DNA from: a virus
DNA length: 64,000 bases
Direction: 5' to 3' (one strand)
Virus record (IMG/VR): IMGVR_UViG_3300029334_000002
Shown here: positions 37,744-62,262 of the stretch, piece after piece
Layout of the letters: each line of letters opens with the position of its first letter
How positions within the stretch are numbered: position 1 is the stretch's first letter
Notes under the pieces: model-generated
Seen by the model: only the letters and a program-made list of their open reading frames with translations
The model's database searches: none
Told to the model about the DNA's origin: nothing
Position numbers and translations under genes: made by a program

Positions 37744-38127
37744 TCAGATAATCTGTAAGTTTTCATCACCAATAAGCCATGCAGAATTTAAAATAAAATT
37801 TTCATATGGGTCGCCACTGTCACCCCAGAACTCATCCGATCCAACTTCCCAATCGCCCAATGTTCCATCATTAAAGTTACCGTATAAATAATCTGCTGTG
37901 TGTTCTAAAAACGCATCCACAGCCTTATCATAATCTTCTTTTCTTATTGACTCTTCTACATCCGGCTCAAGATCAATCCATTTATGTTGCTCAATCAAAA
38001 AAGATTTAGCGTTATCTCTTACTTCCAACAGTGAATTTTTAATGTCTGTCAATGTTGCATCTTTCTTTTTTGCAATGATATAACTTGAAGACGAACTATT
38101 AGTAACAAATCCTCTTCTTATTTTCAT
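37744..38127 (-). CDS. Member of the KxGFVTNSSSSS(F/Y) N-terminal-motif paralog family
   Basis: Starts MKIRRGFVTNSSSSSYII; the C-terminal region is divergent and acidic. Confidence 0.45.
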   Translation of the reverse strand: MKIRRGFVTNSSSSSYIIAKKKDATLTDIKNSLLEVRDNAKSFLIEQHKWIDLEPDVEESIRKEDYDKAVDAFLEHTADYLYGNFNDGTLGDWEVGSDEFWGDSGDPYENFILNSAWLIGDENLQII

Positions 38128-38522
38128 TAACCATCTCTCCCTTCTCCTTCAGCAACTTTTATATCAGCAAATCCATTTACTTCCGTAATAGCATCTATTG
38201 CTTCATTCATAGAGAAATCATAATCATATACAGCATCACCCCATTCATCATAATAAGCATCGTTCCTGTCCTCAATTACGATATATTCTCCATCAGGGTG
38301 CTTTTCTAAAATGTCATCAACCCCATAAATGACCGCTCCGCACCAACTAGCACCAAGCTCACCAGACCAGTTTTTTTCATCATTTACACCAGTAACATCT
38401 AATACATCAAGATTGAACTGATCAATTATCTTCTGAGCTTTTTCTTTGTCAGCAATCCTTGCAAAGCAAATAATGAAACTGCTAGAGCTTGAATTAGTAA
38501 CAAATCCTTTCCGTATTTTCAT
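38127..38522 (-). CDS. Member of the KxGFVTNSSSSS(F/Y) N-terminal-motif paralog family
   Basis: Starts MKIRKGFVTNSSSSSFII; tandem with the previous paralog. Confidence 0.45.
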   Translation of the reverse strand: MKIRKGFVTNSSSSSFIICFARIADKEKAQKIIDQFNLDVLDVTGVNDEKNWSGELGASWCGAVIYGVDDILEKHPDGEYIVIEDRNDAYYDEWGDAVYDYDFSMNEAIDAITEVNGFADIKVAEGEGRDG

Positions 38523-38534
38523 GAGCCCTCCTTT

Positions 38535-38723
38535 CTAGTGGCTCTCGCCACTAGATTTCTTATTCCACTTAGGTTTATCAGTTTTCATTTTATTTACATG
38601 TTTATAGAATGCAAGTGACTTTTTAGATGGCTTCATTCCATGTTTAACCATTCTAGTATGTTTCTTTCCGTTTTTATCTACTTTTGTCTCATACTCTTTG
38701 TTCCAGGAATTCTTTGATCTCAT
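38535..38723 (-). CDS. Small highly basic (Lys-rich) protein
   Basis: 62 aa, more than 30 percent Lys/Arg/His. Confidence 0.3.
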   Translation of the reverse strand: MRSKNSWNKEYETKVDKNGKKHTRMVKHGMKPSKKSLAFYKHVNKMKTDKPKWNKKSSGESH

Positions 38724-38724
38724 A

Positions 38725-39870
38725 TTACATGTCCTCCATTGAATAAATTACTTTTTCTAAGCTTCTTTTTGATTTGAAACACTTCTTAAGCAAACACCAC
38801 ATAATGGCTTTTTCAGTATCATCTTCGTCTTCCCAATCATTTAAGACTACAGAAGTCTGTGTTCCATCTTTGAACCCTACAGTAGTTCTAATTTTTCCTG
38901 TAGCAATATCTTTTGTTCTTCCTACAAATGTGATATCATCTTTCGAAAGTGTTTTACAAACCTGTTTATCAGTTTTATTTTTAGGTACAATATATACATC
39001 AATGCCTAAAGCATCTTTAATCTGGCGCTCACAGCTTCTAAGCTCTTCTCCAATAGTATGCTCTTTTTCTTTTTTCGCTACTGCTTTTTCAAGTGCTTTT
39101 AAAATCTCATCTGGTGACATATTCATATCTGTTTTCTCCTCTTTATAATTAAAATACTGCATTGGTTTCAGTTTAAACTTATTTTTTGTATGTAAACGAT
39201 CAATCCGTCTTTTAATTTCCGGATCATCGCAAATACCTGTACGAATATATCTATCTAATACTGCATAGGTAAATCCGAAGCTATCTTCATCTGATTTACC
39301 GCATAACCCATCTGATGGTGTTTTCTCTATATATTTTTTAGGTAGTCCTAAATAATAACCGATTCTTTTTACTTCACTCTTTGTGAACTGAGCCAACGGT
39401 GAAAAGTCCCCTGCTGCGTCACCATATCTAGTGGAGTATCCGATGTAATCCTCAGAAAGATTACATGTATTAACCACTCTTCCATTGTGTGACTGTGACA
39501 CCCCGTATAGAGTGGTCATTCTTAGTCTAGGAGCGAGATTAATTAATGTCTGATCTGTTACATTAAATGCAGCATCAATTTGATCAATAATATCATCATA
39601 GGCAGATCCAACATTGATAGTAAGATAATCAATCCCCAATACATGCTGGCAAATGTCATATGCCACATCAATATCATCCTGTTTATAGTTCGGCATGATT
39701 ACTCCGAGAACTTTGTCAGCTCCAACGGCTTCCACACATAGCTCAGCAGCTACTAAAGAGTCAACGCCACCGGAAATACCTACTATGAGATTACATCCAG
39801 GACCATTCTCTTCTCTCCAATCTCTAATCCACTGAATACAATCATTTGTTGCTTTTTCTACATTAAACAT
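38725..39870 (-). CDS. nadE: NadE-like PP-loop amidotransferase/synthetase (NAD+ synthetase family) with a C-terminal extension
   Basis: PP-loop LIVGISGGVDSLVAAEL followed by VLGVIMPN, the NadE-type arrangement. 381 aa, against about 275 aa for typical NadE. Confidence 0.55.
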   Translation of the reverse strand: MFNVEKATNDCIQWIRDWREENGPGCNLIVGISGGVDSLVAAELCVEAVGADKVLGVIMPNYKQDDIDVAYDICQHVLGIDYLTINVGSAYDDIIDQIDAAFNVTDQTLINLAPRLRMTTLYGVSQSHNGRVVNTCNLSEDYIGYSTRYGDAAGDFSPLAQFTKSEVKRIGYYLGLPKKYIEKTPSDGLCGKSDEDSFGFTYAVLDRYIRTGICDDPEIKRRIDRLHTKNKFKLKPMQYFNYKEEKTDMNMSPDEILKALEKAVAKKEKEHTIGEELRSCERQIKDALGIDVYIVPKNKTDKQVCKTLSKDDITFVGRTKDIATGKIRTTVGFKDGTQTSVVLNDWEDEDDTEKAIMWCLLKKCFKSKRSLEKVIYSMEDM

Positions 39871-40405
39871 TCTGCTCCTCCAATTTCCACAGTTCTACTT
39901 CAAAACTACTTAATTCTTCTTCTATAATCTTATAAACCACTTCCCAGTCTGCTCCTCCTCTTCCGCAGCCTATTTTATATGGGAGTGCAATGGTTGTCTT
40001 GTGAGGTCTGTTATCAGCATCAAACCAATAAACAGGTATTTGTTGTCGAATAAAATTTAATCCTTCTCGAAAAGCTTTAACATCAGTATACTGTTTTCCA
40101 TCATATCCATACTTGTCTTGTGCAAATAAGGACAATATCTCTTGATTTTTCCTTCTGATAAAGTACTCGTCATATGTTCCAAGAAGTAATTCTGGATTAA
40201 ATTCACGTAATTTACAAACGTTTCTATAATGTATATAAATACCTTCGTCATAATCTCTTAATGCTTTAGCAACTCCAGTATTCATTTCTCCTTGGCAATT
40301 AACTTGATGAATTATATAATCGGTCTGTGCATCTACAATGTTACCTTCAATAATTTTAATCATAAATCTTTTCCTATAAATCCTGAAATGTAAACTTCTC
40401 GCCAC
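39863..40405 (-). CDS. Macro-domain protein (ADP-ribose binding / hydrolase)
   Basis: IIEGNIVDAQTDYIIHQVNCQGEMNTGVAKALRD matches the macro-domain N-terminal signature (GDIT...DAIVNAAN...GGGVA). Confidence 0.6.
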   Translation of the reverse strand: MARSLHFRIYRKRFMIKIIEGNIVDAQTDYIIHQVNCQGEMNTGVAKALRDYDEGIYIHYRNVCKLREFNPELLLGTYDEYFIRRKNQEILSLFAQDKYGYDGKQYTDVKAFREGLNFIRQQIPVYWFDADNRPHKTTIALPYKIGCGRGGADWEVVYKIIEEELSSFEVELWKLEEQNV

Positions 40406-40775
40406 AGGAGCAAATCACTTCTCCAATAGTTCCGATTGATGTTGGTGTAAAGCACCATGTAAGAGAGCCGCCTATGCAACCATGTCCCATTGCTCTCTGT
40501 TCCATAGTTTTCAAACCATGTTTCTCAGCATCATGTTTTAATTCCCACTCTCTGATTTTCTCTTGTTCTTTTTCTGAAATTGGAAATCCTCTATACAGAT
40601 CCTCTTTTGCTTCTTTTAACTCGGTTGCCATTCTCTGCATTTCTGAATCTTTATAATGCTCATCTTTGAGTTTTTTATTTTCTTCTTCCAGATACTCAAT
40701 ACGTCTCTCTTTGTCAACTGTCTTGTCAATAATTCCTTGACAAAGATCTGAGATTGATGCGTTAAAAAAATTCAT
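40374..40775 (-). CDS. Hypothetical protein
   Basis: ORF only. Confidence 0.3.
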   Translation of the reverse strand: MNFFNASISDLCQGIIDKTVDKERRIEYLEEENKKLKDEHYKDSEMQRMATELKEAKEDLYRGFPISEKEQEKIREWELKHDAEKHGLKTMEQRAMGHGCIGGSLTWCFTPTSIGTIGEVICSCGEKFTFQDL

Positions 40776-42242
40776 TTAATTCCCTCCATTTAGTCTATTC
40801 CTGATCTTTTTGAATGTTTCTACATAACACATTTCACCATCTTTAAATACAGTTTTTAATGCCCCATCATAAACAAAGCTGTCATATCCATCTCTGCACC
40901 TTAATTCTCCATTTTCATCGTAATATACATGACAACATCCTTTATGAGATTTCTTTAAATGGCTTACATCTGTCTTTGGATCTTTGTAAATCATAATCGG
41001 TTGTCCGTTAACTTCTCCAAATGTAGCTTTCATAGCAATGCCGAACATATCTCTGGTTACAACGACCATACGTCCATCAGGTTCTACAACTGCCGAGAAA
41101 CAAAAAGCCCCAACTCCAAATACAATGTTGTTTGCAGCGAATCCTTTCTTCTCAAGTTCTTCCCATACCTTTTTTACATTGTTAAGAGTACAGCCATCAC
41201 CATAGATAATTCCAATATGAGGGTCCAGTACTTTGTAACCTTTGCTATTTACTGATCCTTCAAATGTATTCCAGAGTTTTTCGATAGTCTTAACTGAAAT
41301 CTCTACCATATCACCAGAATCCGGACGAACCAAGAGCTTACCATTGTGCTGCATAATTTCTTTTTTGCAAGCTGGAAGAATATTGTCAATCATGTTCCAG
41401 TAATCATATGTATCAGATACCATGCTGAAAGATGCATTCGGATATAATTCTGTAAGTAGTCTTTTCACAAATGTAATTTCGTCTCCGTCCACAGCATAAT
41501 TTGAAGCCATGACCGCATGTTCGGTAGAAATCGCACCAATTCCAATATGACTCACGCTACAGTCATTGAAATAATATTTGTCCAAATAATCAATTGCCGG
41601 GATCGTACTTGTCTTATCAAAGGATAATAGCCAAGCAACGGAGCATCTCTCTGCTTCTTCCATACAGGACATTCCACGCATTCCAAAGTCTGAGCAGGCC
41701 ATTTCAGGTCTTAAAATGTCGTCGCAGGTCTTTTTATAGTAGAAATTTGCCAGTTCTCTGTACATATGTCCAATTGTTGCATGAGCACACGGCTTCCAAA
41801 GCTCAACCTGCAGAATACACTCAATCCACTGCACAACCCATGCAAAATCTGGATGTGTATTCGTGATTTCAATGCATGGCACTCCCATAGGCACTAATGT
41901 ACCTTCCGGTAATGCACGGATCTGAATCGGAAGATACCCTAATTCGTGAAGTTTAAGGATTGGAGAAATATCGTAATTTCCTTCTCCTAACTGAATGTCC
42001 ATACTAATTGTATAAAGTTCTTGAACTTCATCAGTGCTTAATTTAAAGAAATCTCTTTTAAAATATGTAATAAGATATTCTTTAATAAAAGCCTGCAGTC
42101 CGAAGAAAACCATATGATCCTGCTCCTTTAACATTGATCTTCTCGGAGTCCAATAAGAGACTAACTTCGTCAATCCTCTCGGAAACATATTGTGGTGTAC
42201 TTGTTTGTAAGTATCGCTTAACAGAATTGCTAAGGTATCCAT
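40776..42242 (-). CDS. nadV: Nicotinamide phosphoribosyltransferase-like (NadV/NAMPT family; possibly a Namat-type ADPR-PP:nicotinamide transferase)
   Basis: N-terminus LLSDTYKQVHHNMFP matches the NAMPT start (TDSYKVTHYKQYP); about 490 aa, typical for the family. Confidence 0.7.
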   Translation of the reverse strand: MDTLAILLSDTYKQVHHNMFPRGLTKLVSYWTPRRSMLKEQDHMVFFGLQAFIKEYLITYFKRDFFKLSTDEVQELYTISMDIQLGEGNYDISPILKLHELGYLPIQIRALPEGTLVPMGVPCIEITNTHPDFAWVVQWIECILQVELWKPCAHATIGHMYRELANFYYKKTCDDILRPEMACSDFGMRGMSCMEEAERCSVAWLLSFDKTSTIPAIDYLDKYYFNDCSVSHIGIGAISTEHAVMASNYAVDGDEITFVKRLLTELYPNASFSMVSDTYDYWNMIDNILPACKKEIMQHNGKLLVRPDSGDMVEISVKTIEKLWNTFEGSVNSKGYKVLDPHIGIIYGDGCTLNNVKKVWEELEKKGFAANNIVFGVGAFCFSAVVEPDGRMVVVTRDMFGIAMKATFGEVNGQPIMIYKDPKTDVSHLKKSHKGCCHVYYDENGELRCRDGYDSFVYDGALKTVFKDGEMCYVETFKKIRNRLNGGN

Positions 42243-42610
42243 TATTTTTTATCCTCCTCTTTGTCATTTACAATTTTATCAATCTGATCTGTGATATAAT
42301 CAACTACATCTTTACCAGTTTTGCCAATTGTTTGAATATTATCTGGTGTGATTTCATTTACAACTGCCATCGTATATATTGTTTCTGTATTAGGTGTCAT
42401 GATTGTAATGATAGTCATTACAACACATCCGATAATTAATTTGCTAATAGTTTTTCTAAACTTAAATGGTTCGTTATATCCGGTTAATCCAGCAAATAAA
42501 GCACACATAGCAATAACTCCGCATATTCCTGCGATCATTCCAAAAAATGTTGTTAAATTATCTGCTCTACTAGCAGAATAAATCAACCAAGGACTAATAA
42601 TCGGTTTCAT
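42242..42610 (-). CDS. Small membrane protein
   Basis: Several hydrophobic helices. Confidence 0.35.
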   Translation of the reverse strand: MKPIISPWLIYSASRADNLTTFFGMIAGICGVIAMCALFAGLTGYNEPFKFRKTISKLIIGCVVMTIITIMTPNTETIYTMAVVNEITPDNIQTIGKTGKDVVDYITDQIDKIVNDKEEDKK

Positions 42611-42623
42611 ATTTTTATCTCCC

Positions 42624-43013
42624 TTATAACTTTCCTATCAAACAGCCCCAAGTAAAAGCAATCTGAAACATATGAGTTATCTGATCTTGAATTAAATTAA
42701 TTTTCTTTTTATTGGCTTTCATATCATCTACTAACATATGTATCAATAAATTCATAACCAATAATAAAGGATTCCATTTACCGCCAATAATCATAAGCGC
42801 AATTGTTGGTGGTAACATAATCATAAATGACCAACTAAAGCTATGCATAAACAACGCTGCTAAATAATCATATTTATATAATTTTCCTGGTGAATTCTTT
42901 TCCCACCATGATTTTTGTTTTGCAGATGCCAACCATCCTTGTAAATAATAATCATCTACAATGTGGCAGAAAATCATTGTAAATAATATAAATATTTTAT
43001 ATGCGATATTCAT
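42624..43013 (-). CDS. Small membrane protein
   Basis: Hydrophobic helices. Confidence 0.35.
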   Translation of the reverse strand: MNIAYKIFILFTMIFCHIVDDYYLQGWLASAKQKSWWEKNSPGKLYKYDYLAALFMHSFSWSFMIMLPPTIALMIIGGKWNPLLLVMNLLIHMLVDDMKANKKKINLIQDQITHMFQIAFTWGCLIGKL

Positions 43014-43816
43014 TATCTAAACCTCTCAACAAGTTCAATCTTAGGACTTTCCAGATTTGTCAAGATCGTATCTGTCGTATAAATCTTCTCAATCAATCCA
43101 TTATTTTTCAGAAGTTCTCCTTCATAAATAGTATTCTCACAATGAGTAATATAAAGATAAATCTTACCTACACCGGCCTCTTTCAGCTTTTTAGCACTAT
43201 AATAAAAAGTACCACCTCTGCTGCAAATGTCATCTACAATAAGAATGTCTTTACCTGGTAATTGATCAATTTCACCAGATAAATCTAAACCTTTAATCTC
43301 TCCGGTCTCCCAATCTCTATTCTTAATACCGAAAGCATATGGAAGATGTACTGCTGAAGAATATCGCTTCATGGATCCCGCATCCGGATAAAACATCATA
43401 AGGTTATTACTCGCAATCTTCTTAACAGCATCCTCAATCATTCGATTCGGGGATTCTACATGTACTTTATTAAATAATGCGGCAGATACATCAGAATGCG
43501 GATCTAAAACTTCTACTTTTCCAAAATGTAATGAATTAATAGTCTGAGCAAAATATTTTAAAGTAAATAATTCGTTCTCATGCTTGACTCGATCCATACG
43601 TGCATCTGGGATATAAGGCATATATAAATTAGGCACTACTCTATGATCCCAACAATATCTAGTAATATATTCAACTGCTGTTAATTCTTCCATTGATTCA
43701 AAGAACCATTCAATATTATCTCTACACCATCCTCCGATAGGTGGGATATTCTTAAATAAGAATGTCCCATCCGGATATTTATCAAGTTTGATTTCTACAC
43801 CGTTTAATTTAATCAT
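43013..43816 (-). CDS. Ribose-phosphate pyrophosphokinase-like (Prs family; possibly an Adps-type ADP-ribose pyrophosphokinase)
   Basis: LYMPYIPDARMDR (Prs PYxxYARQDR), LDPHSDV, and the PRPP-binding loop LIVDDICSRGGT. The N-terminus is shorter than in canonical Prs. Confidence 0.65.
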   Translation of the reverse strand: MIKLNGVEIKLDKYPDGTFLFKNIPPIGGWCRDNIEWFFESMEELTAVEYITRYCWDHRVVPNLYMPYIPDARMDRVKHENELFTLKYFAQTINSLHFGKVEVLDPHSDVSAALFNKVHVESPNRMIEDAVKKIASNNLMMFYPDAGSMKRYSSAVHLPYAFGIKNRDWETGEIKGLDLSGEIDQLPGKDILIVDDICSRGGTFYYSAKKLKEAGVGKIYLYITHCENTIYEGELLKNNGLIEKIYTTDTILTNLESPKIELVERFR

Positions 43817-43869
43817 TCCAAATCTCCTTATAATCTATTTCTTACTGTTTAATAATCCTTACTTAACTT

Positions 43870-44331: not shown

Positions 44332-44332
44332 C

Positions 44333-45455: not shown

Positions 45456-45479
45456 TTTTTACTCCTTTCTATTTATTAA

Positions 45480-45561
45480 TCCACCCAGAGAGACTCGAAC
45501 TCTCACGCTATTAAGCATTAGAACCTAAATCTAACGTGTCTGCCAATTCCACCATGGGTGG
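45480..45561 (-). tRNA. tRNA-Leu (anticodon TAG), type II with a long variable arm
   Basis: Manual fold: acceptor CCACCCA/TGGGTGG, anticodon stem TTAGA/TCTAA with loop TTTAGGT, a 15-nt variable arm, T-arm GAGAG-TTCGAGT-CTCTC. Confidence 0.7.
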
Positions 45562-45689
45562 GTACAACTGGCAGTTCAACTGCCAATTGTTAATAATGAA
45601 AGCGACTATTATATTTACTTATTCACTACTTACCAGCCTTGTACAAACTAAGAGCCAAGTATAATCATGCTCATAAACTTTTACCAAGG

Positions 45690-52393: not shown

Positions 52394-52650
52394 TCTTCTT
52401 CCTCCATTTTATACAATATAACATAATCTTTACCATGAACAAATTTTTCCCCTTCTCCAACTGGAACCTCTTCATAAAGCTTCGGCTCCAGTCTTATGTA
52501 GGAATCTCCGGTTTCTACTCTTACAACATCTCCCTCTTCATATATATTTTCAATTACAAAGTTCATCCACCCCATTTCCATGCCATTTATGTGACAAATT
52601 AATCCAATTCTCTCCTCAGTTCCAAAACATTCATAAAGTCTCTCTAACAC
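52384..52650 (-). CDS. Hypothetical small protein
   Basis: ORF coupled to ligA. Confidence 0.3.
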   Translation of the reverse strand: MLERLYECFGTEERIGLICHINGMEMGWMNFVIENIYEEGDVVRVETGDSYIRLEPKLYEEVPVGEGEKFVHGKDYVILYKMEEEECF

Positions 52651-52745
52651 TGCAATCCCTCCAATGTTCGAACGCTTGTTCGCTTATTATGTTTAAATAT
52701 TACCACACACAGCAAATTAAGTCAATCTATGTGTGGTATTATCTA

Positions 52746-53657
52746 TTATAAATAACTATAAAATTTATTTTTAAGAGTTCCTTTGCCATAAGAACTTATA
52801 TTATAATTTGAACTAACCATTTCAACATACTGGCTTTCAAAGATATCTTCCTTAGAAACATTATATTTCTTCATTATTTCTCTAAACTGCTCTACAATTC
52901 CGGCTGTATAGAGTCGAGGAATAGTCAGATACGGAATATTAAGCTCTTTTCTAAGCGCAATTAACCTATTTGTCAGTCTTAGATTTAAAGCTTCTAATGA
53001 ATCACTACGTGTATTATTCCTGGAGTTAACAATATTCCCCTTCATACTTAATAAAGAAGCAGTTCCAGTAAAAGATATATACTCCTCCTCTTGTGAACTA
53101 ACTTTAGCCAAGTCTACCAGCGTCTCTGACAAAGTTTTTTCCTCTCCGTTTTCGAAAGTAAGGATATTACCATTCAACTTACTTATTTTAGCTCTTAAAA
53201 GCTCACCGGGGGCTTCTGTTCTTACTCCTTCAAACAAAGCCAGAATTAAAAATTTATCAGAATAGTTTCTAATTTTAGAAATATCCTTTAAAACCTGTTC
53301 TCTGCTGGGACACACCGCTCTCTCCTTATTAAGATATTTCTGTAGACTTTCAATTTCCATATTTATTTCATCATAGTGATTTATGTTGTCTATAGATATG
53401 TTGCAGGAACAACACCAGTCAGCATATTTCCGTAAAACACTTATATTTTTCCTTAAGGCATTTATTGATGAGGCTGCAAATGTAGACAACAATTTATCTA
53501 TTTCAGAAAAAGTAAAATCACATAAGTCCTTGTTAAGTAAGTCCTCATAGTCTTCCGTTTTGTTAAAAAGAGCTTTCGCACTTTGTGGAGTTTGTCCGAG
53601 ATCTTCTACTACATGTCGCAGATATTCTTTCTTCCGTTCTTCATTATACATAATCAC
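52746..53657 (-). CDS. Hypothetical protein
   Basis: 303-aa ORF, no clear motif. Confidence 0.35.
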   Translation of the reverse strand: MIMYNEERKKEYLRHVVEDLGQTPQSAKALFNKTEDYEDLLNKDLCDFTFSEIDKLLSTFAASSINALRKNISVLRKYADWCCSCNISIDNINHYDEINMEIESLQKYLNKERAVCPSREQVLKDISKIRNYSDKFLILALFEGVRTEAPGELLRAKISKLNGNILTFENGEEKTLSETLVDLAKVSSQEEEYISFTGTASLLSMKGNIVNSRNNTRSDSLEALNLRLTNRLIALRKELNIPYLTIPRLYTAGIVEQFREIMKKYNVSKEDIFESQYVEMVSSNYNISSYGKGTLKNKFYSYL

Positions 53658-54862
53658 ACCTCCTCAAATAAAGCTTTTATTTTATTTACTTTCATGTTTG
53701 TAACACTATTAATAATCGGCACATCTTTTCCTAATGCACTTTCTATTTTTTCTGCACATTCATATGCATCCTTTGAGATAGATGAACCATATAACACTAC
53801 TGGCATAGTGGTGTCATCAAATACAACATCTGGATTATTCTCTTGAACTATCTTCAAAATATTTATGATAAATACCGCAGTTTTGATACACTGACTCCGG
53901 TTCATATTTTTAGTTTTAAGAATAAACTCCAATAATGAAAACAAAGTAGCTCTGTCTATTTCTCCTCTATGTGCTCTTTCAATTTTACCTCTTACTGGAC
54001 TATCCAATGTGTTGTTTAGTTTGTCAATAATTATATTAGTAGGAGACGACTTATCCATAGAAGCTAAGTAACTTTTAGAAATCTTATTTCTCTTATCTTC
54101 CTGCTCAATATACTGACATGCTTTGTCTTCTGTAAAATTCATGATATTCAGAATAAAATTAAACTGAAAATCAGGATTCTTAATTTTCGTGTTTATTGCA
54201 GCTCTAAACCGGTGAAAACCATCAATGATATCAAATTTACCAGAATTAAGTATCAATTCTGATCCAACAATATCAAAATCTACCTCTGGATCATCAACAT
54301 TGAGATTAAGAGTTAAAGCATTAGGTACAAATTCTCCCTTGCTCATTAAACCTTCAATAGCTTTTACTGATGAAGAAACTATATCAATTGTATATGATAC
54401 ATCTTGTCCTCTACGTCTCTGTTTAAGTTGACGCTGAGTCCTTGGATTGTATATTATAAGCTGGTTATCATAAAACTCTTTTAGTAAATCAATACTTATT
54501 TTTGTCACCCATTGATCTTCAGCTATCTCTATCACTGGACTTATTCTTATTGGATAAATATCTGTTTTTAAATAATCTGCCTTTAGGCTCGAAAATCTTA
54601 CTATTTCCTTATCAGAAAAATATGTTTTCATTTCCATATTTGTCCTAAAAACATTATTAAACGCATCAATAAGCCAATACATTTCATTGTCTGGAATTTC
54701 ATCTTTGCTTTTTGCTCCAATGATATACTGCATATATTCAATATCTGAGTATTCATATTTTTTCATAAGAAATTTTTGTACTTCTCTCTTGTAATATGAA
54801 TTTTTCTGGATTTGAGAAAAATACTTATCCAGTATCTCATACAGGTTTTCACTTCTTAACAT
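53654..54862 (-). CDS. ParB/sulfiredoxin-like nuclease-domain protein
   Basis: IIDGFHRFRAAI matches the ParB-N DGxHR motif. Confidence 0.45.
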   Translation of the reverse strand: MLRSENLYEILDKYFSQIQKNSYYKREVQKFLMKKYEYSDIEYMQYIIGAKSKDEIPDNEMYWLIDAFNNVFRTNMEMKTYFSDKEIVRFSSLKADYLKTDIYPIRISPVIEIAEDQWVTKISIDLLKEFYDNQLIIYNPRTQRQLKQRRRGQDVSYTIDIVSSSVKAIEGLMSKGEFVPNALTLNLNVDDPEVDFDIVGSELILNSGKFDIIDGFHRFRAAINTKIKNPDFQFNFILNIMNFTEDKACQYIEQEDKRNKISKSYLASMDKSSPTNIIIDKLNNTLDSPVRGKIERAHRGEIDRATLFSLLEFILKTKNMNRSQCIKTAVFIINILKIVQENNPDVVFDDTTMPVVLYGSSISKDAYECAEKIESALGKDVPIINSVTNMKVNKIKALFEEV

Positions 54863-54902
54863 TTTGCAACCTCCTTTCTTGTATTATATCATTGTTTAGA
54901 AC

Positions 54903-55910
54903 TTATTTCAATAAACTATTTACATATTTAGCAGCTTCAGCATTAATGGGCTTTCGAACGATGTATCTTTGTGTCGTGTCAGGTCGAGAATGATTCATTA
55001 ATTGCTGTACATATGCAATGTCTCCTGTCTGATCATATAATAATGTAGCAAAAGTACTTCTAAATTTATGAGGAGTAATATGTTTTTCAAAATCTGCGGT
55101 ATATGCCTTAACTAAATCTCTCACTGATTTGTCAGTGATTCTTGTTCGTCTGTTAGAAATAAAAAGAGCATTACAATCTCTTTTATTCAAAAGTTCTGCA
55201 CGTTTTATTACCCAATTTCTTAAAATATCCATACTATCATCATCAAGTTCACATTCATAAGTGTTTCTGCGCTTATCAGTAACCCTAATAATCTTCTGAT
55301 CCCAGAATATATCTTCCATATTAAGTTCTGTAAGCGCAGTAACACGAATACCAGTTACCATAAGAAGAGTAAATATAGCAAGGTTTCTTTCCTTCCATGC
55401 TTCTCTTCTTGCGTTGGCCCTTTTTGTACCAATAGAATTATCATTTATTCTTTCAACAACTTTTTTCAACTCTGCGGCTGTCATTACAACCTGTTTAAGC
55501 GGATCTTTTACAGAAACTCTTTTTATGCCACAATCAAAAGGGTTCTCTGAAATCATTTTTCTGCTTAACAAATAATCAGCAAATGATTTTAATGCCGTAT
55601 AAGTAGTTGCTTTAGCACTATCTGAACTATATCCTCCATCTCTTCCTCTTAAGCAAGAGAGATAAGAGTTTACATTGTCAATAGTCATTGCTCCATTACA
55701 ATCTTCTATTGACTCTATAAACCCGTTTTCTTTCAAATAGTTCATAAACCTAACAGCCGTCATAGTATAATTTTGCGCAGTAAGATATTCGCATGAATTG
55801 AATAGACCATTATAATAACCAGTGAAATATTGTGGCTTATCCCTAAGCAATGCTCTCATCTTGCTTTCTGATTTATATTTATGTTCTTCTCTTCCTTTCA
55901 TGCAATTCAC
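54903..55910 (-). CDS. Second tyrosine recombinase (XerC/D- or Cre-like)
   Basis: LMVTGIRVTALTELNMEDI (Arg box), HKFRSTFATLL (HxxR) and a Tyr in TTQRYI, with an N-terminal SAM-like core-binding domain. Confidence 0.75.
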   Translation of the reverse strand: MNCMKGREEHKYKSESKMRALLRDKPQYFTGYYNGLFNSCEYLTAQNYTMTAVRFMNYLKENGFIESIEDCNGAMTIDNVNSYLSCLRGRDGGYSSDSAKATTYTALKSFADYLLSRKMISENPFDCGIKRVSVKDPLKQVVMTAAELKKVVERINDNSIGTKRANARREAWKERNLAIFTLLMVTGIRVTALTELNMEDIFWDQKIIRVTDKRRNTYECELDDDSMDILRNWVIKRAELLNKRDCNALFISNRRTRITDKSVRDLVKAYTADFEKHITPHKFRSTFATLLYDQTGDIAYVQQLMNHSRPDTTQRYIVRKPINAEAAKYVNSLLK

Positions 55911-55911
55911 C

Positions 55912-56628
55912 TCACCATCTAAATTTGTGGTCTAATCCACTTCCACTAATTCCATGTTTATTTCTTTGTTCAAGGATTTCTTTTCTTACTTTTTCATGCT
56001 TTGAATGAAAATAAGCTGCTGCTACCGCCCACATTGTTATCAGTAGACTCAAACCAGAAAGTCCAGCCATTAACAGTACAAATGATATTATTCCTAATAT
56101 AACTATAGTCTTTGCATCAGACTCGTCCCAAACATCTACATGCTTTGCTGCCTTAGAATCAGGATCGCTTGTTTCCCCCCATGTCCATGGATTCGGCAAA
56201 GGTATTGGCTCATAGTCATCTCTCACTACAGCAATAGGGAATGGATAAGCTTCTTCCATTTCAAAATCTAATGAGTCTACTTCTACTCGGACAGTACAAT
56301 TGGGATGATAGTTCCAAACCTTATTCCCGGTTCTTACTACTTGAAAAGTTCCTTGCTGACCGGGCCTCAGTGCTTTTTCTGTCAGCTCAACTTCTTCATG
56401 TATAGGATATAGATTGAACCCGTATTTTTCATCCCAATTGTTTTTATTGTCTTCAGTAACTTTGAGCAATAATAAACCTGTATTTTGCTTTGCGTCTGTC
56501 ATTTGTACCGGAGGCCATTTAGCATATTCATGCGCACTTTCATAAATTTCTTCCAATGTTTTGCCAGGTACTCTATATGTCCAACCTGGCTTCATATCTC
56601 TTACTTTAACTTTCTTTCCCAAATTCAC
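55912..56628 (-). CDS. C-terminally membrane-anchored hypothetical protein
   Basis: Single C-terminal TM helix (IVILGIISFVLLMAGLSGLSLLITMWAVAAAYF). Confidence 0.35.
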   Translation of the reverse strand: MNLGKKVKVRDMKPGWTYRVPGKTLEEIYESAHEYAKWPPVQMTDAKQNTGLLLLKVTEDNKNNWDEKYGFNLYPIHEEVELTEKALRPGQQGTFQVVRTGNKVWNYHPNCTVRVEVDSLDFEMEEAYPFPIAVVRDDYEPIPLPNPWTWGETSDPDSKAAKHVDVWDESDAKTIVILGIISFVLLMAGLSGLSLLITMWAVAAAYFHSKHEKVRKEILEQRNKHGISGSGLDHKFRW

Positions 56629-56676
56629 CTTACCTTTCCTTGATACAAAAAGATGGCTATTTACAGTTTATAGTAT

Positions 56677-56880
56677 TTATGTAGTTTTTTCAATAGGTCT
56701 CCATCCTACAACACACTTATCTGTCCAATTCCTCCATTCATAATTTCCATATTTTCCTTTAACCATCATATCTCTTTTGATGCTGCCATCAGTCATAAGA
56801 ATTTCTACTTCCTTATACAGTTCAGGAAAGTCTCCCCATTCTGTGTGCCAACTCATATTTTCACCTTCTCTACCTTTCAA
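56677..56880 (-). CDS. Hypothetical small protein
   Basis: ORF only. Confidence 0.25.
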   Translation of the reverse strand: MKGREGENMSWHTEWGDFPELYKEVEILMTDGSIKRDMMVKGKYGNYEWRNWTDKCVVGWRPIEKTT

Positions 56881-56893
56881 TTCTATTTAGCAT

Positions 56894-57109
56894 TTATTTC
56901 TTATAGGGCTCACTGTTATATTTCCATGCTGTTATTTCTACTCTAACTTCATTGTCGGTTAACGACCAATACCAATCTCCATCATTTCTATACGCAAATG
57001 CATCACAATAAGGCTCATGATCGTTGTATCCAATATATGTTACTTGTACATCTTCCATATCATCTGGTAATAAACCAGTACTAATGGGAGTCCAACTATT
57101 ATTTTTCAT
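56894..57109 (-). CDS. Hypothetical small Trp-rich protein
   Basis: ORF only. Confidence 0.3.
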   Translation of the reverse strand: MKNNSWTPISTGLLPDDMEDVQVTYIGYNDHEPYCDAFAYRNDGDWYWSLTDNEVRVEITAWKYNSEPYKK

Positions 57110-57118
57110 ATTATTCTC

Positions 57119-57307
57119 CTATGTAACTAACCCAAATTCTTTAATAAGTCTCTGCACAACCATCCGGTTACATTTCTTATAAGCAATAGACAATGTTTTC
57201 TTTACACCTTCTTTCTTATAAATCGAATGTCCTCCAGTACAATGGTCTAGTTCCCAGCCATTCTTTAGAATAATTCTCTCAACTTCTCTTCTGTTATAAG
57301 TTTTCAT
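57119..57307 (-). CDS. hicA: HicA-like mRNA interferase toxin
   Basis: LKNGWELDHCTGGHSIYKK follows the HicA pattern (LxxxGW..xxxxGSHxxY), 62 aa. Confidence 0.55.
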   Translation of the reverse strand: MKTYNRREVERIILKNGWELDHCTGGHSIYKKEGVKKTLSIAYKKCNRMVVQRLIKEFGLVT

Positions 57308-57405
57308 ATTTCACCTTCTTTCATCTAAATATCCATTCAATGATAGTTCTTGCTATAACTCCTATTAAAAAATACTGCAATTTTATCCCCTTATTTTTAT
57401 TTGTA

Positions 57406-58215
57406 TTATAAGAAATATCCAACTGTTTTATCCTTTGGCTTTCCCCAAATAGATTCGTACAGATACTCTACCGTACTAGGTGCAATTCCATGATAGTTAC
57501 ACAATTCTTTAAATACTTCATATTTTGGTCTGGCATTAATATCTTCAATTACTTCTCCTAATGAAGTTTCGGCATAGTTGGTGGCGCACCCATACATCGG
57601 AAGCGGCTCATATATGCTCTTCAATTCTTTATAGACTTCATCACTATATTTATGAATATCATCATTTAACCCAGCAGAATCTGATTTATCAAGTTCCTTT
57701 TCTTTATCTCCTATAATTTCGCTTGCCTTGAACTGAATAACATTGCACATATGCCACTGATAATCATCGTCAACACACGAATCAAACGAATTAACTTCAA
57801 ATACATCATCGTCAGTTATGTCAATATTAAAATCATTAGCCATTTTAGCTGCTGAATCTAACATATGATTTTTACATTCTTCCAAAGTGCCAATCTTCTC
57901 TACATAGAATCCAACACCTTCGTAAGCATGATGATAAATACAAAGATAATCTCCATCTTTTATTTCAATTTCATGAATAGTGTTAACATAGAATTCTCCA
58001 TCTCCGTATGAATAATCAATTCGCATGATCTGGTCGTCGGATCCGTCTACATTTTTATATTCAAGCTCACTTATTACTTCTTCTCGGCTTTCCTCTGTAA
58101 TACTGACTAAGTTGTCTATAACCCATTTATGAGCCGCAAAAGCAGCTTCAAAAAAGTAAAAATATGGTTCTCTATAATGTTCACTATCCAATGTACATAG
58201 TAAATATATCTTCAT
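57406..58215 (-). CDS. Hypothetical acidic protein
   Basis: ORF only. Confidence 0.35.
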   Translation of the reverse strand: MKIYLLCTLDSEHYREPYFYFFEAAFAAHKWVIDNLVSITEESREEVISELEYKNVDGSDDQIMRIDYSYGDGEFYVNTIHEIEIKDGDYLCIYHHAYEGVGFYVEKIGTLEECKNHMLDSAAKMANDFNIDITDDDVFEVNSFDSCVDDDYQWHMCNVIQFKASEIIGDKEKELDKSDSAGLNDDIHKYSDEVYKELKSIYEPLPMYGCATNYAETSLGEVIEDINARPKYEVFKELCNYHGIAPSTVEYLYESIWGKPKDKTVGYFL

Positions 58216-58218
58216 TTT

Positions 58219-58803
58219 TCACCTCCACTGTTTCTTTCTTTTACTCTGCATCTTCCAACCTGACACTTTTGATCCTCTTACATGATCCCATGAATCTGTT
58301 TTTCTTTTTGGCTTTATAGGTTTGAGAGTAATACCATATTCATATTTAATCTCTTTTATTTCTTCTGGTGTAATACTTTTACGCTGATCCGGCTCTGTTG
58401 AAGCCCGATGAATATTCCATCCATGATGTTTATGATATGTACGATAATATTTCTTCTTATATTTCTTAGTAAGCTGATGAAAATCCCGTACATTACCATG
58501 ATCGTCTATAATCAAATATCTGTGATATTCGTGAGTGCAAATCATAAAATCCCAATTATTATCTATTTTTAAATATTCATCATCAAAATAGTTAAATGAA
58601 TGGTAAAAATTAATACTTCTCATACTGTATGGGAACTTTAGCTTAAAGTATGTATACAGTTCTTTAGTCCCTTCTACACATCCTACATATTCCCATGGGA
58701 GCCATTTGTATACGATCCATTTAAAATGACCTTCTGCGCATTTTGTACGCTGCATATAAATACGGTATTCTCTCATATCTACTCTCCTATTAACCTCTCT
58801 CAA
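58219..58803 (-). CDS. Hypothetical protein with a strongly basic C-terminus
   Basis: His/Lys/Arg-rich tail. Confidence 0.35.
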   Translation of the reverse strand: MREVNRRVDMREYRIYMQRTKCAEGHFKWIVYKWLPWEYVGCVEGTKELYTYFKLKFPYSMRSINFYHSFNYFDDEYLKIDNNWDFMICTHEYHRYLIIDDHGNVRDFHQLTKKYKKKYYRTYHKHHGWNIHRASTEPDQRKSITPEEIKEIKYEYGITLKPIKPKRKTDSWDHVRGSKVSGWKMQSKRKKQWR

Positions 58804-58821
58804 GAAGAGAGAGGTTTCCTT

Positions 58822-59763
58822 TTATATAGCGCAAAGAAATCTATGAGTATCTTTTTCATACTTATATATTTTCCTTGTGAGGAAATCTTCTTTAGGTGTC
58901 GCTTCTTCCAACGTATCCTGTAAGATTATTGATAAGTCTACCGCATCAACAGCATCTGCTTTATGTACCATTACCTCATGTACACTGGTAAACACTAAAT
59001 ACAAATCTGAATCCAGTACACCAGCAAAGCGTTCAGCCACACCGGGATAAAATATAGCTACCGCACCGTTTGTTTTCTTTGCTGTAGTTAGACAATTTCC
59101 AATAAGATCTTGGCTAATTGCTTCTTCTGTACCAGGACTCATAAACTCTTCTCCTTCATATTCCGGATTAAAGAGCATCTGATCCCATCTGTAAATTCTC
59201 GATGGATACATACGTTCTGTGTTTCTTAATGCTTCTTCCAGAATATTGTCTTCACTTAAGGTCAAACCATCTTCCTTCCATTTCTCTACTACAGATTTAA
59301 AAATCTTAGTGCTCATAATGTTTCCATCACATTCAGACACCTTCATATATAATACCTGAGCAATATCACCTATTCTTTTATAAACAGCATTACTCAATTC
59401 TTTAGAATTATCATCATAATTAAGCAGCCTTATAAAAAGAGAATCTTTAACAGTTTCATAGTTCCAAATTTTCTTTGTTTTTTCATAAGAATTTTGTCCT
59501 TGTAACTGTCTAATGTCTCTTACAGTATTAGCAAGAATGATGTCAAATGATGTTCCATTTAAGAATTCTCTAAAGAGTTCTTTTGTATGTAACCCACAGA
59601 CCTCCCAGGCATCATCATGCTCTGCAAACTTCACCAGCAGTCTGTCTCCTGTCGGAGAAAATCTATCTCCATCTTTTGAAAATTCTATATTCTCAATAGG
59701 AATGTTGATAGCTACACTTATTTTATTTTTAAGTTCTTCCACAAACATTTCATAGTTCATCAT
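58822..59763 (-). CDS. Hypothetical protein
   Basis: 313-aa ORF. Confidence 0.35.
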   Translation of the reverse strand: MMNYEMFVEELKNKISVAINIPIENIEFSKDGDRFSPTGDRLLVKFAEHDDAWEVCGLHTKELFREFLNGTSFDIILANTVRDIRQLQGQNSYEKTKKIWNYETVKDSLFIRLLNYDDNSKELSNAVYKRIGDIAQVLYMKVSECDGNIMSTKIFKSVVEKWKEDGLTLSEDNILEEALRNTERMYPSRIYRWDQMLFNPEYEGEEFMSPGTEEAISQDLIGNCLTTAKKTNGAVAIFYPGVAERFAGVLDSDLYLVFTSVHEVMVHKADAVDAVDLSIILQDTLEEATPKEDFLTRKIYKYEKDTHRFLCAI

Positions 59764-59781
59764 AATTAATCCCTCTCTTTC

Positions 59782-60555
59782 TTAACCCATATGGTTACAT
59801 GAATACTCTGACATTTCGCTTAACTTTTTAACTATAAAATCTGGTATATAGCCACATTCTGAACAAATACAAATCTTTCCTAAGATATACAAACATGCTT
59901 GATCTCTTGGAATTTCTTTTCCCATAAACTGTTGTTTAGTTTCTTGGCATTCCTCTTTATAGCAGTATTCATTATCTGGACAGCTATCACAGTCATACTT
60001 TATATTTTCAATCCAGGGAAAATACCAAGCTAAGATATCAGATTCAACTCCATTTCCTTCATCTCCTATACAATCTGTTATTCCTGTGCTGAAATCCAAA
60101 GGGATATATGGATCATTAGAAGAAAAATCTCTTATATAAAAAGGTGCATGTATCCCTCTTTCTTGCATTCTCTGAATCCAAAACTGTTCATAGTCTGTGT
60201 ATGTTTCACAAACTGTCCAAGAAAGTTCTTCTAAGCTTGGCAAATCATCATACCAAGTGGTTCCAAACATTGCTTTTAACTGTTTATCAATACTATCTGT
60301 GCATTTCCAGTCATATCCGTTCTGTCGATGAATAGTTTTTCCATCAAGAGTACTTACAACTTCAAATACTGCCGGATAATACTTCTCTACATAGTCGTAC
60401 ATATCAGAACATGATTTATAATATTGTTTATAAAGTTCCTTTATTTCTTGATATACCGAATCAATAGTTACTGTGTTGTCGTTTGCTTTGCCAATAATAA
60501 AACTTGAAGAACTACTATTGGTCACAAACCCGTTACGAATCTTCAATGGTATCAC
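59782..60555 (-). CDS. Member of the KxGFVTNSSSSS(F/Y) N-terminal-motif paralog family (longest copy, Cys-rich C-terminus)
   Basis: MIPLKIRNGFVTNSSSSSFII at the N-terminus; several Cys clusters at the C-terminus. Confidence 0.45.
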   Translation of the reverse strand: MIPLKIRNGFVTNSSSSSFIIGKANDNTVTIDSVYQEIKELYKQYYKSCSDMYDYVEKYYPAVFEVVSTLDGKTIHRQNGYDWKCTDSIDKQLKAMFGTTWYDDLPSLEELSWTVCETYTDYEQFWIQRMQERGIHAPFYIRDFSSNDPYIPLDFSTGITDCIGDEGNGVESDILAWYFPWIENIKYDCDSCPDNEYCYKEECQETKQQFMGKEIPRDQACLYILGKICICSECGYIPDFIVKKLSEMSEYSCNHMG

Positions 60556-61075
60556 CTCTTCCTATATCATATGCTCTTTTACAGTACTTCCAATCATTAC
60601 ATAATGATCCATCCATTTTCTTATAGCAACCTTTACACAGGTATTCTCTGCTTTCTATGATTTTATTAAACTGCTCATAGTTTGCGTAGAATTCTTTCCG
60701 GTAGGTTCCATCTTCATCTTCAATAGTACCTATATAGCCACCATCTGCTTCATCAAGAATGTCCGAATTAAAATATGGATACAGAAAATCATAAATATCT
60801 TGCCCTAAGTCATCACCTAGGTACATGTATCCTTTCATACAGAAGCTGGCAGTCAAGAACCACACTCCTTCTGAAAATTCTAATGTGTAAGTCGGATATA
60901 AAGCTCTATAATGATTCATCCATTTAGACTCTTTTAATTCTCTATGCTGTAACAATGGTTTTATATCTCTATCACAGCTCCGCTCACTTGCAAGCACTGA
61001 TAAATCATGTAACAGTTCATCTGGAAGATTTCTTTTCAATCCGAAAATTAATTTTCCTTCATAGTAATTTCCCAT
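60533..61075 (-). CDS. Hypothetical protein
   Basis: ORF only. Confidence 0.35.
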   Translation of the reverse strand: MGNYYEGKLIFGLKRNLPDELLHDLSVLASERSCDRDIKPLLQHRELKESKWMNHYRALYPTYTLEFSEGVWFLTASFCMKGYMYLGDDLGQDIYDFLYPYFNSDILDEADGGYIGTIEDEDGTYRKEFYANYEQFNKIIESREYLCKGCYKKMDGSLCNDWKYCKRAYDIGRGDTIEDS

Positions 61076-61104
61076 TTCTCCACACCCTTTCTAATGCTTG
61101 CATT

Positions 61105-61581
61105 TCAATGATGACTAATAGTAGCAAGACAACAATTCATATCCGGTACAACATGATGTTCAAGGGTTGAATACATAAGACCATCATTGTCTGAATAATT
61201 AATCTCTACAAATACAGAGTACCCTTGCATATCTTCCTCTAACTCAGACATCCTATCTGTTATTGCTTTATTAAGCTTTTCCTGGAATTCTTCCGTTTTT
61301 CGTATTTCAAGTTTCTTACTATAAGGTACATAGAGACTGTCTTCTATCTCCCAAAGAGTCTGATAATAGATTTCTTCTGAATATCCTTCCAAAACATCTT
61401 CTCTATCCAACTTTGCAGCTTCCGTTACATCTCTTAAGATTTCCTCAAAGTATTCTTCTTCAAGATTTTCTTTCTGCAGCTCCTCTTTGATACTTTCTTC
61501 ACTCTTGAAACCAAGAATAAAGCTACTGCTGCTGCTATTAGTTACAAATCCTTTTCTAATCTTCATGATCAATCCTCCCAT
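61105..61581 (-). CDS. Member of the KxGFVTNSSSSS(F/Y) N-terminal-motif paralog family
   Basis: MKIRKGFVTNSSSSSFIL. Confidence 0.45.
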   Translation of the reverse strand: MGGLIMKIRKGFVTNSSSSSFILGFKSEESIKEELQKENLEEEYFEEILRDVTEAAKLDREDVLEGYSEEIYYQTLWEIEDSLYVPYSKKLEIRKTEEFQEKLNKAITDRMSELEEDMQGYSVFVEINYSDNDGLMYSTLEHHVVPDMNCCLATISHH

Positions 61582-61835
61582 TCGACATCTTCTCTAGCTA
61601 CACCAATTAATAATAAAAACTTTTCCATGTCAAAATTATCCATAAGAGTATAGCCATGAATTTCATATTTAGTTTCTCTGATGTCCCATTCATCATAAAA
61701 TGTTTCCATTTCTAATTCTTTTGCAACCTTAATATGATTTTTAATCTTTTCAATCTGATCGTCTGTTAAATCACTTTTAGCAATAGTAAAACTGGATGAG
61801 GAACTATTAGTTACAAAACCTATTCTTAACTTCAT
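61569..61835 (-). CDS. Member of the KxGFVTNSSSSS(F/Y) N-terminal-motif paralog family (short copy)
   Basis: MKLRIGFVTNSSSSSFTI. Confidence 0.45.
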   Translation of the reverse strand: MKLRIGFVTNSSSSSFTIAKSDLTDDQIEKIKNHIKVAKELEMETFYDEWDIRETKYEIHGYTLMDNFDMEKFLLLIGVAREDVEWED

Positions 61836-62251: not shown

Positions 62252-62262
62252 AAGACTCCTCC

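Follow-up and report, generated by a model that had tools for sequence, protein, structure and literature searches.

Five genes with a common N-terminal tag

The 64,000-nucleotide stretch of viral DNA analyzed here (IMG/VR record IMGVR_UViG_3300029334_000002, the whole of which we refer to as the window) carries five genes, A to E, whose products begin with nearly the same 17 residues and then diverge. This leader, hereafter the tag, has the form MK(I/L)RxGFVTNSSSSS(F/Y), and a six-frame scan finds exactly five copies of it in the 64 kb, each within one listed open reading frame (ORF), so that all five ORFs reported in the initial annotation are present. They lie on the minus strand throughout, a detail absent from that annotation. 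As described below, genes of this kind are coupled in phages and cellular genomes to the gene for a predicted radical S-adenosylmethionine (radical-SAM)/SPASM enzyme, and the tag is probably the site that this enzyme recognizes and modifies.

Paralog A: 37744..38127, minus strand; 127 amino acids (aa), acidic (isoelectric point, pI, 4.4); tag MKIRRGFVTNSSSSSYI and a body belonging to a family of its own.
Paralog B: 38127..38522, minus strand; 131 aa, acidic (pI 4.2); tag MKIRKGFVTNSSSSSFI and a ferredoxin-like alpha/beta body.
Paralog C: 59782..60546, minus strand; 254 aa from a TTG at 60546; tag MKIRNGFVTNSSSSSFI and a Cys-rich body with 13 Cys.
Paralog D: 61105..61566, minus strand; 153 aa from an ATG at 61566; tag MKIRKGFVTNSSSSSFI and a Glu-rich body.
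Paralog E: 61569..61835, minus strand; 88 aa; tag MKLRIGFVTNSSSSSFT and a small alpha/beta body.

The limits of A, B and E are those first annotated, but the 5' ends of C and D were revised, as internal start codons fit the motif and the ribosome-binding signals better. For C, the start is most likely the TTG at 60546, which is preceded by a ribosome-binding-site-like GGAAGAGGTGA, and not the GTG at 60555 given by the ORF lister; for D, it is most likely the internal ATG at 61566, preceded by GGGAGGA, and not position 61581. With both starts moved, the motif occupies residues 1-17 in all five copies, and each of the proposed starts has a Shine-Dalgarno-like purine run 6-9 nt upstream.

The codons of the five tags were then compared over the following segments.

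38077..38127, minus strand: 17-codon tag of A.
38472..38522, minus strand: 17-codon tag of B.
60496..60546, minus strand: 17-codon tag of C.
61516..61566, minus strand: 17-codon tag of D.
61785..61835, minus strand: 17-codon tag of E.

Across the five, amino-acid identity is 87% and nucleotide identity 70%; different codons are used at 56% of the positions with identical residues, and both classes of Ser codon, AGY and TCN, occur at four of the five Ser positions. DNA identity among the genes ends at the leader. Recent duplication, which the initial annotation had itself named as one finding that would undermine its case, is ruled out by this codon divergence and by the confinement of DNA identity to the leader, and the comparison indicates that the tag is kept by selection on the protein. 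The bodies behind it are a different matter: once the leader and a few residues after it are cut off, BLASTP detects a single weak pair (B-E, E-value 5e-4 over 26 residues) and no other pair among A to E below an E-value of 0.03. Detectable likeness thus ends at about residue 18, in keeping with the earlier description of the five proteins as diverging completely after the leader.

Nothing meaningful was found for the five proteins in Pfam, NCBIfam, PADLOC or the PDB sequences, and public databases name the exact window proteins 'hypothetical protein'. All five match phrog_7397 ('unknown function') with E-values of 1.4e-2 to 4.5e-5, the match spanning just residues 1-20 to 1-31 in A, B and E, and about 90 residues in C and D. 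Neither the motif nor its pairing with an enzyme is described in the openly searchable literature (subscription-only papers lie outside it). The view that this is not a described family therefore holds for Pfam, NCBIfam, PADLOC, the PDB sequences and that literature, and is amended by PHROGs, which does group the proteins, under an entry that carries no function.

Spread of the tag and its partner enzyme

Further loci were fetched by the tag alone, with a degenerate DNA pattern for the leader, from viral contigs and from prokaryotic contigs representing one genome per species. At least 111 viral and at least 120 prokaryotic stretches were obtained, 231 loci being listed, and the counts given here rest on the matches listed. 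Viral loci carry one to six tagged genes in tandem, mostly two or three, and the motif stands at residue 1, with the same offset from Met1, in 304 of 311 viral tagged ORFs and 156 of 158 cellular ones. Among the top profile hits, which were not constrained by the DNA pattern, it is at residue 1 in 131 of 138 newly returned sequences, with the consensus M-K-h-R-x-[D/G]-F-V-[T/S]-N-S-S-S-[S/T]-S-[F/Y]-h-h, where h is hydrophobic. A 42-residue tag profile returned only fragments of 30-74 aa, and these fed an exhaustive search. The tag-only profile, run against 1.84 billion representatives of 50%-identity clusters, gave 20,856 hits at E-values of 1e-3 or lower and 462 at 1e-10 or lower; as matching the tag alone yields about 45-55 bits, the bulk of the true hits should fall between these two thresholds.

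Cellular hits come from Lachnospiraceae, Oscillospiraceae, Erysipelotrichaceae, Veillonella, Sporomusa and Coriobacteriia, and also from 'Deltaproteobacteria', Bacteroidales and Arenibacter. A Kaiserbacteria genome, of the candidate phyla radiation (CPR), has six tandem copies, and the tag is also found on one contig labeled Methanoculleus, an archaeon by label. Cellular proteins headed by the tag include BspA-type leucine-rich repeat (LRR) arrays, one of more than 1,800 aa, and proteins with TIR, BRCT or HIRAN domains; in some, a hydrophobic segment directly follows the tag. The bodies of the viral loci form 31 BLAST components, 11 of which have at least six members, and those of A to E fall in five different ones. 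The body of D belongs to the largest (41 members), and that of A to a separate family of 13, whose cluster members, as far as they were read, are all without a name. When body families were compared profile to profile (hhalign, first 20 residues removed), the probability of homology was at most 26%, and hidden homology of the bodies is ruled out by BLASTP and hhalign together. The body families are all acidic (median pI 4.4, none above 8, against a median of 5.4 for the other ORFs of the window), a property that discriminates only weakly.

Some database proteins (P0201-P0206, P0215 and P0221) contain two in-frame tags, the second of which mostly still starts with Met-Lys. They resemble neighboring tagged genes joined where a stop codon is missing or recoded, and the retained Met-Lys underlines that the tag normally lies at a true N-terminus. 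Three short metagenomic ORFs (P0187, P0415 and P0418), on contigs of about 0.5-1.6 kb, have the tag, or a start like that of E, fused to pieces of ClpP or of ribosomal proteins L18 and L9; assembly or frameshift chimeras are the likeliest explanation.

When every ORF of the 231 loci was clustered, one family without the tag stood out. It encodes a protein of about 358 aa and is present in 147 of the 231 listed loci (56 viral and 91 cellular), and the next most common neighbor family occurs in just 24. This partner lies on the strand of the tagged genes in 142 of 142 cases, at a median gap of 13.5 bp, and the gap is 50 bp or less in 89 of the 142. Among arrays flanked by at least 2-3 kb on both sides, a partner occurs within that distance in 17 of 30 and 15 of 21 viral arrays, and in 26 of 34 and 6 of 7 cellular arrays, or in 57-86% of adequately flanked loci. 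Clustering of the neighbors revealed no conserved third gene, such as a protease or exporter, with the pair. One enzyme accompanies one to six tagged genes with unrelated bodies, which is the pattern of one maturase serving many substrates.

By its sequence the partner is a divergent radical-SAM/SPASM enzyme. The Pfam SPASM model scores 27.2 bits (cut-off 21.5), no variation is seen at three N-terminal Cys, and conservation is 88-94% at the C-terminal Cys, among them those of the SPASM signature CxxCx5Cx3C. A profile of the family matches SuiB over the full core (E-value 7.5e-17), and also SkfB, PqqE, BtrN and the anaerobic sulfatase-maturating enzyme (anSME; E-value 3e-6). SuiB, SkfB and PqqE are its nearest relatives of known structure, and these three, like anSME, have peptides or proteins as their substrates. 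Hits in NCBIfam are weak, nearly all to radical-SAM enzymes and mostly to peptide or cofactor maturases, with no equivalog near its cut-off, and PADLOC has no model for the enzyme. PADLOC hits of the canonical-clade enzyme (see below) to viperin cover only the generic radical-SAM core, and a viperin identity was rejected. The radical-SAM/SPASM gene of the T4-like phages Miro, KP15, Lw1 and Miller (26% identical) was also set aside; it belongs to another enzyme family and has no tagged genes beside it. In PHROGs the partner corresponds to phrog_7293 (E-value 5e-25), so that this entry and phrog_7397 hold the enzyme and the tagged proteins, both labeled 'unknown function' and with labels that draw no connection between the two. 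Neither half of the pair is named in Pfam, NCBIfam, PADLOC or PHROGs, and the tag is not a signature to which these resources assign a role.

The partner enzymes fall into two clades by the spacing of the radical-SAM cluster Cys. Canonical CX3CX2C partners are a mostly cellular minority (15 of 130 classified), and the tags paired with them read NSSSTS in 18 of 18 cases. The second clade has an inserted loop and an unusual CX7CX6C spacing (GHCVHGASGLCxxxGVQCY, for example at 6246-7310 of contig L233); it is found on phage contigs (50 loci) and in cellular genomes such as those of Clostridia and a CPR bacterium (65 loci), and its paired tags read NSSSSS in 202 of 208 cases. Enzyme clade and tag variant covary with a Fisher p of 7e-22, a value that is not corrected for phylogeny.

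Two types of system can be distinguished along the same line. Type 1, with the canonical enzyme, encodes only one tagged protein, which is conserved and about 137 aa long (range 122-140 aa over the loci examined). In Veillonella parvula (L159, 2423-8001) and Acetatifactor muris (L115) it forms a full cassette of a large NACHT/STAND-like NTPase, a metallo-beta-lactamase-fold protein, a protein of about 136-142 aa, the NSSSTS-tagged protein and the canonical radical-SAM/SPASM enzyme; in Veillonella, neither the NACHT hit nor the one to a trypsin-like N-terminal domain reaches its curated Pfam cut-off. Arenibacter (L168) and the Methanoculleus contig (L123) have a large upstream protein, with a NACHT hit in the latter and no Pfam hit in the former, and a small protein, and the metallo-beta-lactamase gene was not seen in these two loci. 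Sporomusa (L130) has other upstream genes, and an extra protein of about 325 aa is encoded in the Acetatifactor and Sporomusa loci. PADLOC has no model for the NACHT cassette, which, from its gene content, looks like an uncharacterized conflict system of the nucleotide-binding leucine-rich repeat receptor (NLR) type. Type 2 is the form found in the window, with one to six tagged genes and variable bodies.

A tblastn search of the 64-kb window did not find the partner enzyme. Upstream of E is a run of small genes on the same strand that, in close relatives, connects E to the radical-SAM/SPASM gene.

61832..64000, minus strand: same-strand small-gene run (61832-62251, 62263-62529, 62534-62818, 62757-63566 and 63563-63982).

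The partner is present in five viral loci that show synteny with the window's right end (L089, L076, L007, L010 and L047; mostly 87-95% protein identity) and also in six contigs that encode the exact 88-aa protein of 62263-62529 and share 94-96% DNA identity with the window. In all of these relatives the gene encodes 354-360 aa (cut off by the end of the locus in L010) and lies upstream of the E-D-C array, on its strand. The edge of the window corresponds to position 8526 of L233, where the partner occupies 6246-7310, and the corresponding gene would lie on the minus strand, 1.2-2.3 kb past coordinate 64000. By synteny, this genome probably has its enzyme gene there, just past the right edge of the window. 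In relatives, a second tandem array lies just upstream of the partner and past the window edge (L089, 6666-7758; L076, 4820-5644 and 8841-10365; L233, 5161-6253); it consists of paralogs of about 83-101 aa with an N-terminal K-(V/I)-G-x-x-(V/Y)-x-V-(R/K)-S-W. An exact-protein look-up gave no match for the last gene of the window.

Structure and likely role of the tag

AlphaFold2 models were made of B (40 orthologs) and E (46 homologs), with a predicted local distance difference test score (pLDDT) of 81 and 82, respectively. Whether the leader is ordered, a question raised with the initial annotation, has a different answer in each. The tag of E is an ordered hairpin (pLDDT 80-86), made up of beta1 (residues 3-9), a turn (N10-S13) and beta2 (14-19), and is integrated in the sheet; in B, residues 1-11 are unplaced (pLDDT below 50) and a strand begins at S13. 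Free in one model and packed in the other, the tag most likely forms a beta-hairpin whose tip is the Asn-Ser run, judging from these models. Fold searches with both returned only generic alpha/beta sandwiches and de novo designs, and no enzyme fold. The earlier suggestion of a beta-strand and phosphate-binding loop from a new enzyme fold is not supported by these results: a P-loop-like strand-loop-helix is at odds with the strand, four-residue turn and strand of E, with the Ser run that starts a strand in B, and with bodies that are non-homologous.

One explanation that draws on these models is that the hairpin is self-sufficient, a structural or ligand-binding motif such as an oligomerization strand or a metal or anion loop, and that the enzyme has another role in the same pathway. 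AlphaFold2 does build it confidently into the sheet of E, an acidic residue (Asp or Glu) occupies position 19 in 81 of 137 hits and would face Arg4 (a pairing taken from the register of the model), and A and B are far from the enzyme gene in this phage. Such a motif would leave unexplained why the tag is placed at residue 1, why one enzyme family follows it across phyla and why the enzyme clade predicts the S or T variant; nor could unrelated bodies give a ligand site a common environment. We regard this explanation as quite unlikely.

The coupling and covariation are better accounted for if the tag is what the co-encoded radical-SAM/SPASM enzyme recognizes and modifies, with one such enzyme serving many unrelated tagged proteins, and on the evidence of gene context we consider this probable. 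A shared modification site at the Ser run was among the possibilities listed in the initial annotation, and is now the one favored by the genomic association, with the status of the tagged proteins as substrates still an inference. The tag, M-K-h-R-x-[D/G]-F-V-[T/S]-N-S-S-S-[S/T]-S-[F/Y]-h, would then be portable, a docking site for the enzyme of the same element. The enzyme would bind it, always at the very start of the protein and probably as a beta-hairpin with a polar Asn-Ser tip, and would modify it by SAM-derived radical chemistry, for example by a cross-link within the tag or by oxidation or epimerization of Ser. The sequence neighbors of the enzyme are cross-linkers (SuiB, SkfB and PqqE) more than anSME, so a cross-link of the hairpin or a change at a Ser of the tip are the obvious candidates. 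The variable body behind the tag would carry the biological activity. In the Blautia phage represented by the window, at least five such proteins, small, acidic and of different body families, would be served by an enzyme whose gene is predicted just upstream of the C-D-E array.

The same coupling and covariation would also be expected if the tag were an adaptor that docks variable target-recognition subunits onto the enzyme, the things modified being third-party host or phage proteins, or the ends of nucleic acids, and not the tagged proteins themselves. Typical recognition or binding modules are indeed found among the cellular bodies (BspA-type LRR, BRCT and HIRAN), and the tag of E is modeled as a structured hairpin and not as a floppy peptide. 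Yet a small, polar T/S-N-S-S-S-S/T-S that is near-invariant over about 20,000 clusters looks more like an active-site constraint on a substrate, the neighbor clustering revealed no conserved gene for a third-party target with the pair, and the enzyme's nearest relatives of known structure work on the bound peptide itself. An adaptor role therefore seems unlikely to us.

Several observations weigh against modification of the tag itself. The argument is built from gene context throughout, and 15-45% of adequately flanked arrays have no partner nearby. The covariation of clade and tag variant comes from a split between two deep clades, and phylogeny could account for part of it. No RiPP (ribosomally made, post-translationally modified peptide) recognition element could be recognized before the core of the partner. 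The structural evidence is mixed, with an ordered, integrated tag in the model of E and residues 1-11 unplaced in that of B; with the tag ordered as in E, the enzyme would have to act before folding or on the exposed tip only. In this genome, the enzyme gene is outside the window, its presence being deduced from contigs of 94-96% identity, and the coupling in this lineage is loose, with seven genes between the enzyme and E, and A and B about 25 kb away.

From what the tag is found with (NACHT cassettes, TIR, LRR and HIRAN bodies, and the phage batteries of small acidic proteins), we conjecture a part in phage-host conflict. In its broadest form, which is tentative and on balance rather doubtful, the tag and enzyme would be a general and so far unrecognized protein-tagging system used by both sides of that conflict, providing either a new hairpin modification or the recruitment of interchangeable specificity subunits. 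On the bacterial side, the tag would mark components of NLR cassettes and LRR, TIR and HIRAN proteins; on the phage side, large gut phages would tag small acidic proteins that may counter host defenses. Radical chemistry would then switch on, stabilize or direct many unrelated proteins. One enzyme appears to service an N-terminal tag found on about 20,000 protein clusters with unrelated bodies, carried by very abundant human-gut phages, Clostridia, a CPR genome, Bacteroidota and an archaeon-labeled contig. If the tag is modified, this would be a new post-translational chemistry on full-length proteins, linked to NLR-like immune cassettes and, possibly, to phage counter-measures, and would offer a way into the function of thousands of phage genes now called 'hypothetical'.

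Genome context and relation to known systems

Database matches of the exact E and B proteins are WP_227194101.1 (multispecies, Blautia) and WP_368255482.1 (B. wexlerae), and the same proteins occur on contigs of about 165-190 kb. Blautia, which the phage infects or inhabits, is strictly anaerobic, as would suit an oxygen-sensitive enzyme. The window genes include those for ribonucleotide reductase, the DNA polymerase III (PolIII) alpha subunit, DnaB-like and RecD2-like proteins, an NAD-dependent ligase, NAMPT, NadE, RNA ligase, RlaP and a P-type ATPase, and by these predictions the window makes up a module for replication and nucleotide/NAD metabolism. Of the window genes scanned, none was identified as a head gene.

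The initial annotation also proposed that the leader is a capsid-targeting sequence. In T4, a short N-terminal leader directs internal proteins to the capsid, and the prohead protease recognizes the motif L/I-x-E. Applied here, the leader would carry the tagged proteins into the prohead and be cleaved, and the proteins would be injected with the DNA. There is a formal likeness, in that a short leader is common to unrelated small proteins encoded in tandem outside a head module, and small acidic bodies would suit anti-host proteins that act early. The 17 residues contain no Glu, however, no conserved residue pattern marks the boundary of leader and body, and the conserved partner is a radical-SAM enzyme and not a protease or scaffold. 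The tag also heads an LRR protein of more than 1,800 aa and TIR, BRCT and HIRAN proteins, and occurs in the NACHT cassettes of Veillonella, Sporomusa and Arenibacter, on the Methanoculleus-labeled contig and in a CPR genome; a signal that has to fit one capsid and one protease would not be expected to stay unchanged over hosts this diverse. Given the missing Glu-type cleavage site, the tagged chromosomal proteins and the setting of the window genes in a replication/NAD module, we consider the capsid proposal very improbable.

Other features of the window were noted. Genes for NadE (38725-39870), a NAMPT-like phosphoribosyltransferase (40776-42242), an RlaP-type nucleotidyltransferase (36222-37256) and a P-type cation ATPase (33598-36219) surround A and B, which are placed between the NadE and RlaP genes. 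NadE has an extra C-terminal region of about 140 aa without a Pfam hit, and the ATPase is full-length (873 aa). Two untagged, Cys-rich small proteins with zinc-ribbon-like CxxC pairs (37216-37734, 172 aa; 60533-61075, 180 aa) adjoin tagged genes A and C/D, respectively, and keep the same positions in relatives; a search for a family match to either found none. The DnaE-like PolIII alpha replicase appears split over 11893-13281, 13360-14004 and 14113-16677, with the PHP, core and finger domains in an 854-aa ORF, HHH_6 in a 462-aa ORF, and a 214-aa ORF between them. Upstream of C-D-E, the region at about 52600-57600 (99.4% identity to L233 15304-20267) carries genes for a tyrosine recombinase (Phage_integrase), an MrpR-like recombinase and a HicA toxin-like protein, and suggests a temperate or plasmid-like lifestyle. 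A Lar restriction-alleviation gene is also present in the relatives L236 and L237, and some contigs with the exact B or E protein are 0.5-2.4 Mb long.

Among known systems, the T4 internal proteins resemble the tagged proteins in having a short N-terminal leader on unrelated, tandem-encoded small phage proteins; they differ in that here there is no cleavage motif, the tag is not restricted to phages and the partner is a radical-SAM enzyme.

Radical-SAM/SPASM enzymes have a known part in producing small modified peptides and in maturing one enzyme family, the sulfatases. The first group, represented by SuiB/StrB with streptide, SkfB with the sporulation killing factor, and PqqE with PqqA, is matched by the partner profile over the whole core and shares the SPASM Cys pattern CxxCx5Cx3C, and its enzyme genes are likewise operonic with genes that encode a short invariant recognition sequence and vary elsewhere. 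The precursors in those systems are short peptides, from which an N-terminal leader is removed and in which a C-terminal core is modified. Here, by contrast, the first 17 residues are invariant and are followed by a folded, orthologously conserved body of 70 to more than 1,800 residues, there is no recognizable RiPP recognition element, no protease or exporter goes with the pair, and a phage and Clostridia clade has the non-canonical CX7CX6C. A classical RiPP precursor was rejected, as the invariant part is residues 1-17, the bodies are folded and orthologously conserved, and no conserved third gene is present.

Sulfatase maturation offers a parallel in the nature of the substrate: anSME/AtsB, also of the radical-SAM/SPASM class, alters a Ser or Cys within a short conserved motif close to the N-terminus of full-length proteins, and a single enzyme has many paralogous substrates. 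The sulfatase motif for anSME is C/S-x-P/A-x-R, and differs from the TNSSSSS of the tag; the bodies here are unrelated and not of one enzyme family, and the profile match is weaker than those to SuiB, SkfB and PqqE. The different motif and the mutually unrelated substrates rule out a sulfatase-maturation system.

Among NTP-dependent conflict systems, radical-SAM/SPASM peptide-processing modules with C-terminal FxSxx peptides have been described in vWA-MoxR ternary systems (Kaur, Burroughs, Iyer, Aravind, eLife 2020, PMC7159879). These resemble the present pair in setting a radical-SAM/SPASM enzyme beside a small protein with a conserved motif, in cassettes with NTPases of the STAND/AP-ATPase type, and the Type 1 cassette can be compared with them in this respect, with a NACHT NTPase bearing a trypsin-like domain and a metallo-beta-lactamase-fold protein here. 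The differences are that the motif is an N-terminal TNSSS[ST]S, that vWA and MoxR proteins are absent here, and that the phage-borne, multi-copy form is absent there. Features expected of a maturase and its substrates, namely the Cys motifs of the enzyme, adjacent co-directional tagged genes and lineage variants of tag and enzyme that track each other, are all observed, with the partner outside the window. By analogy, the tag and enzyme would work as a radical-SAM/SPASM maturase with its substrates, in an arrangement that is neither a classical RiPP cluster nor a sulfatase system.

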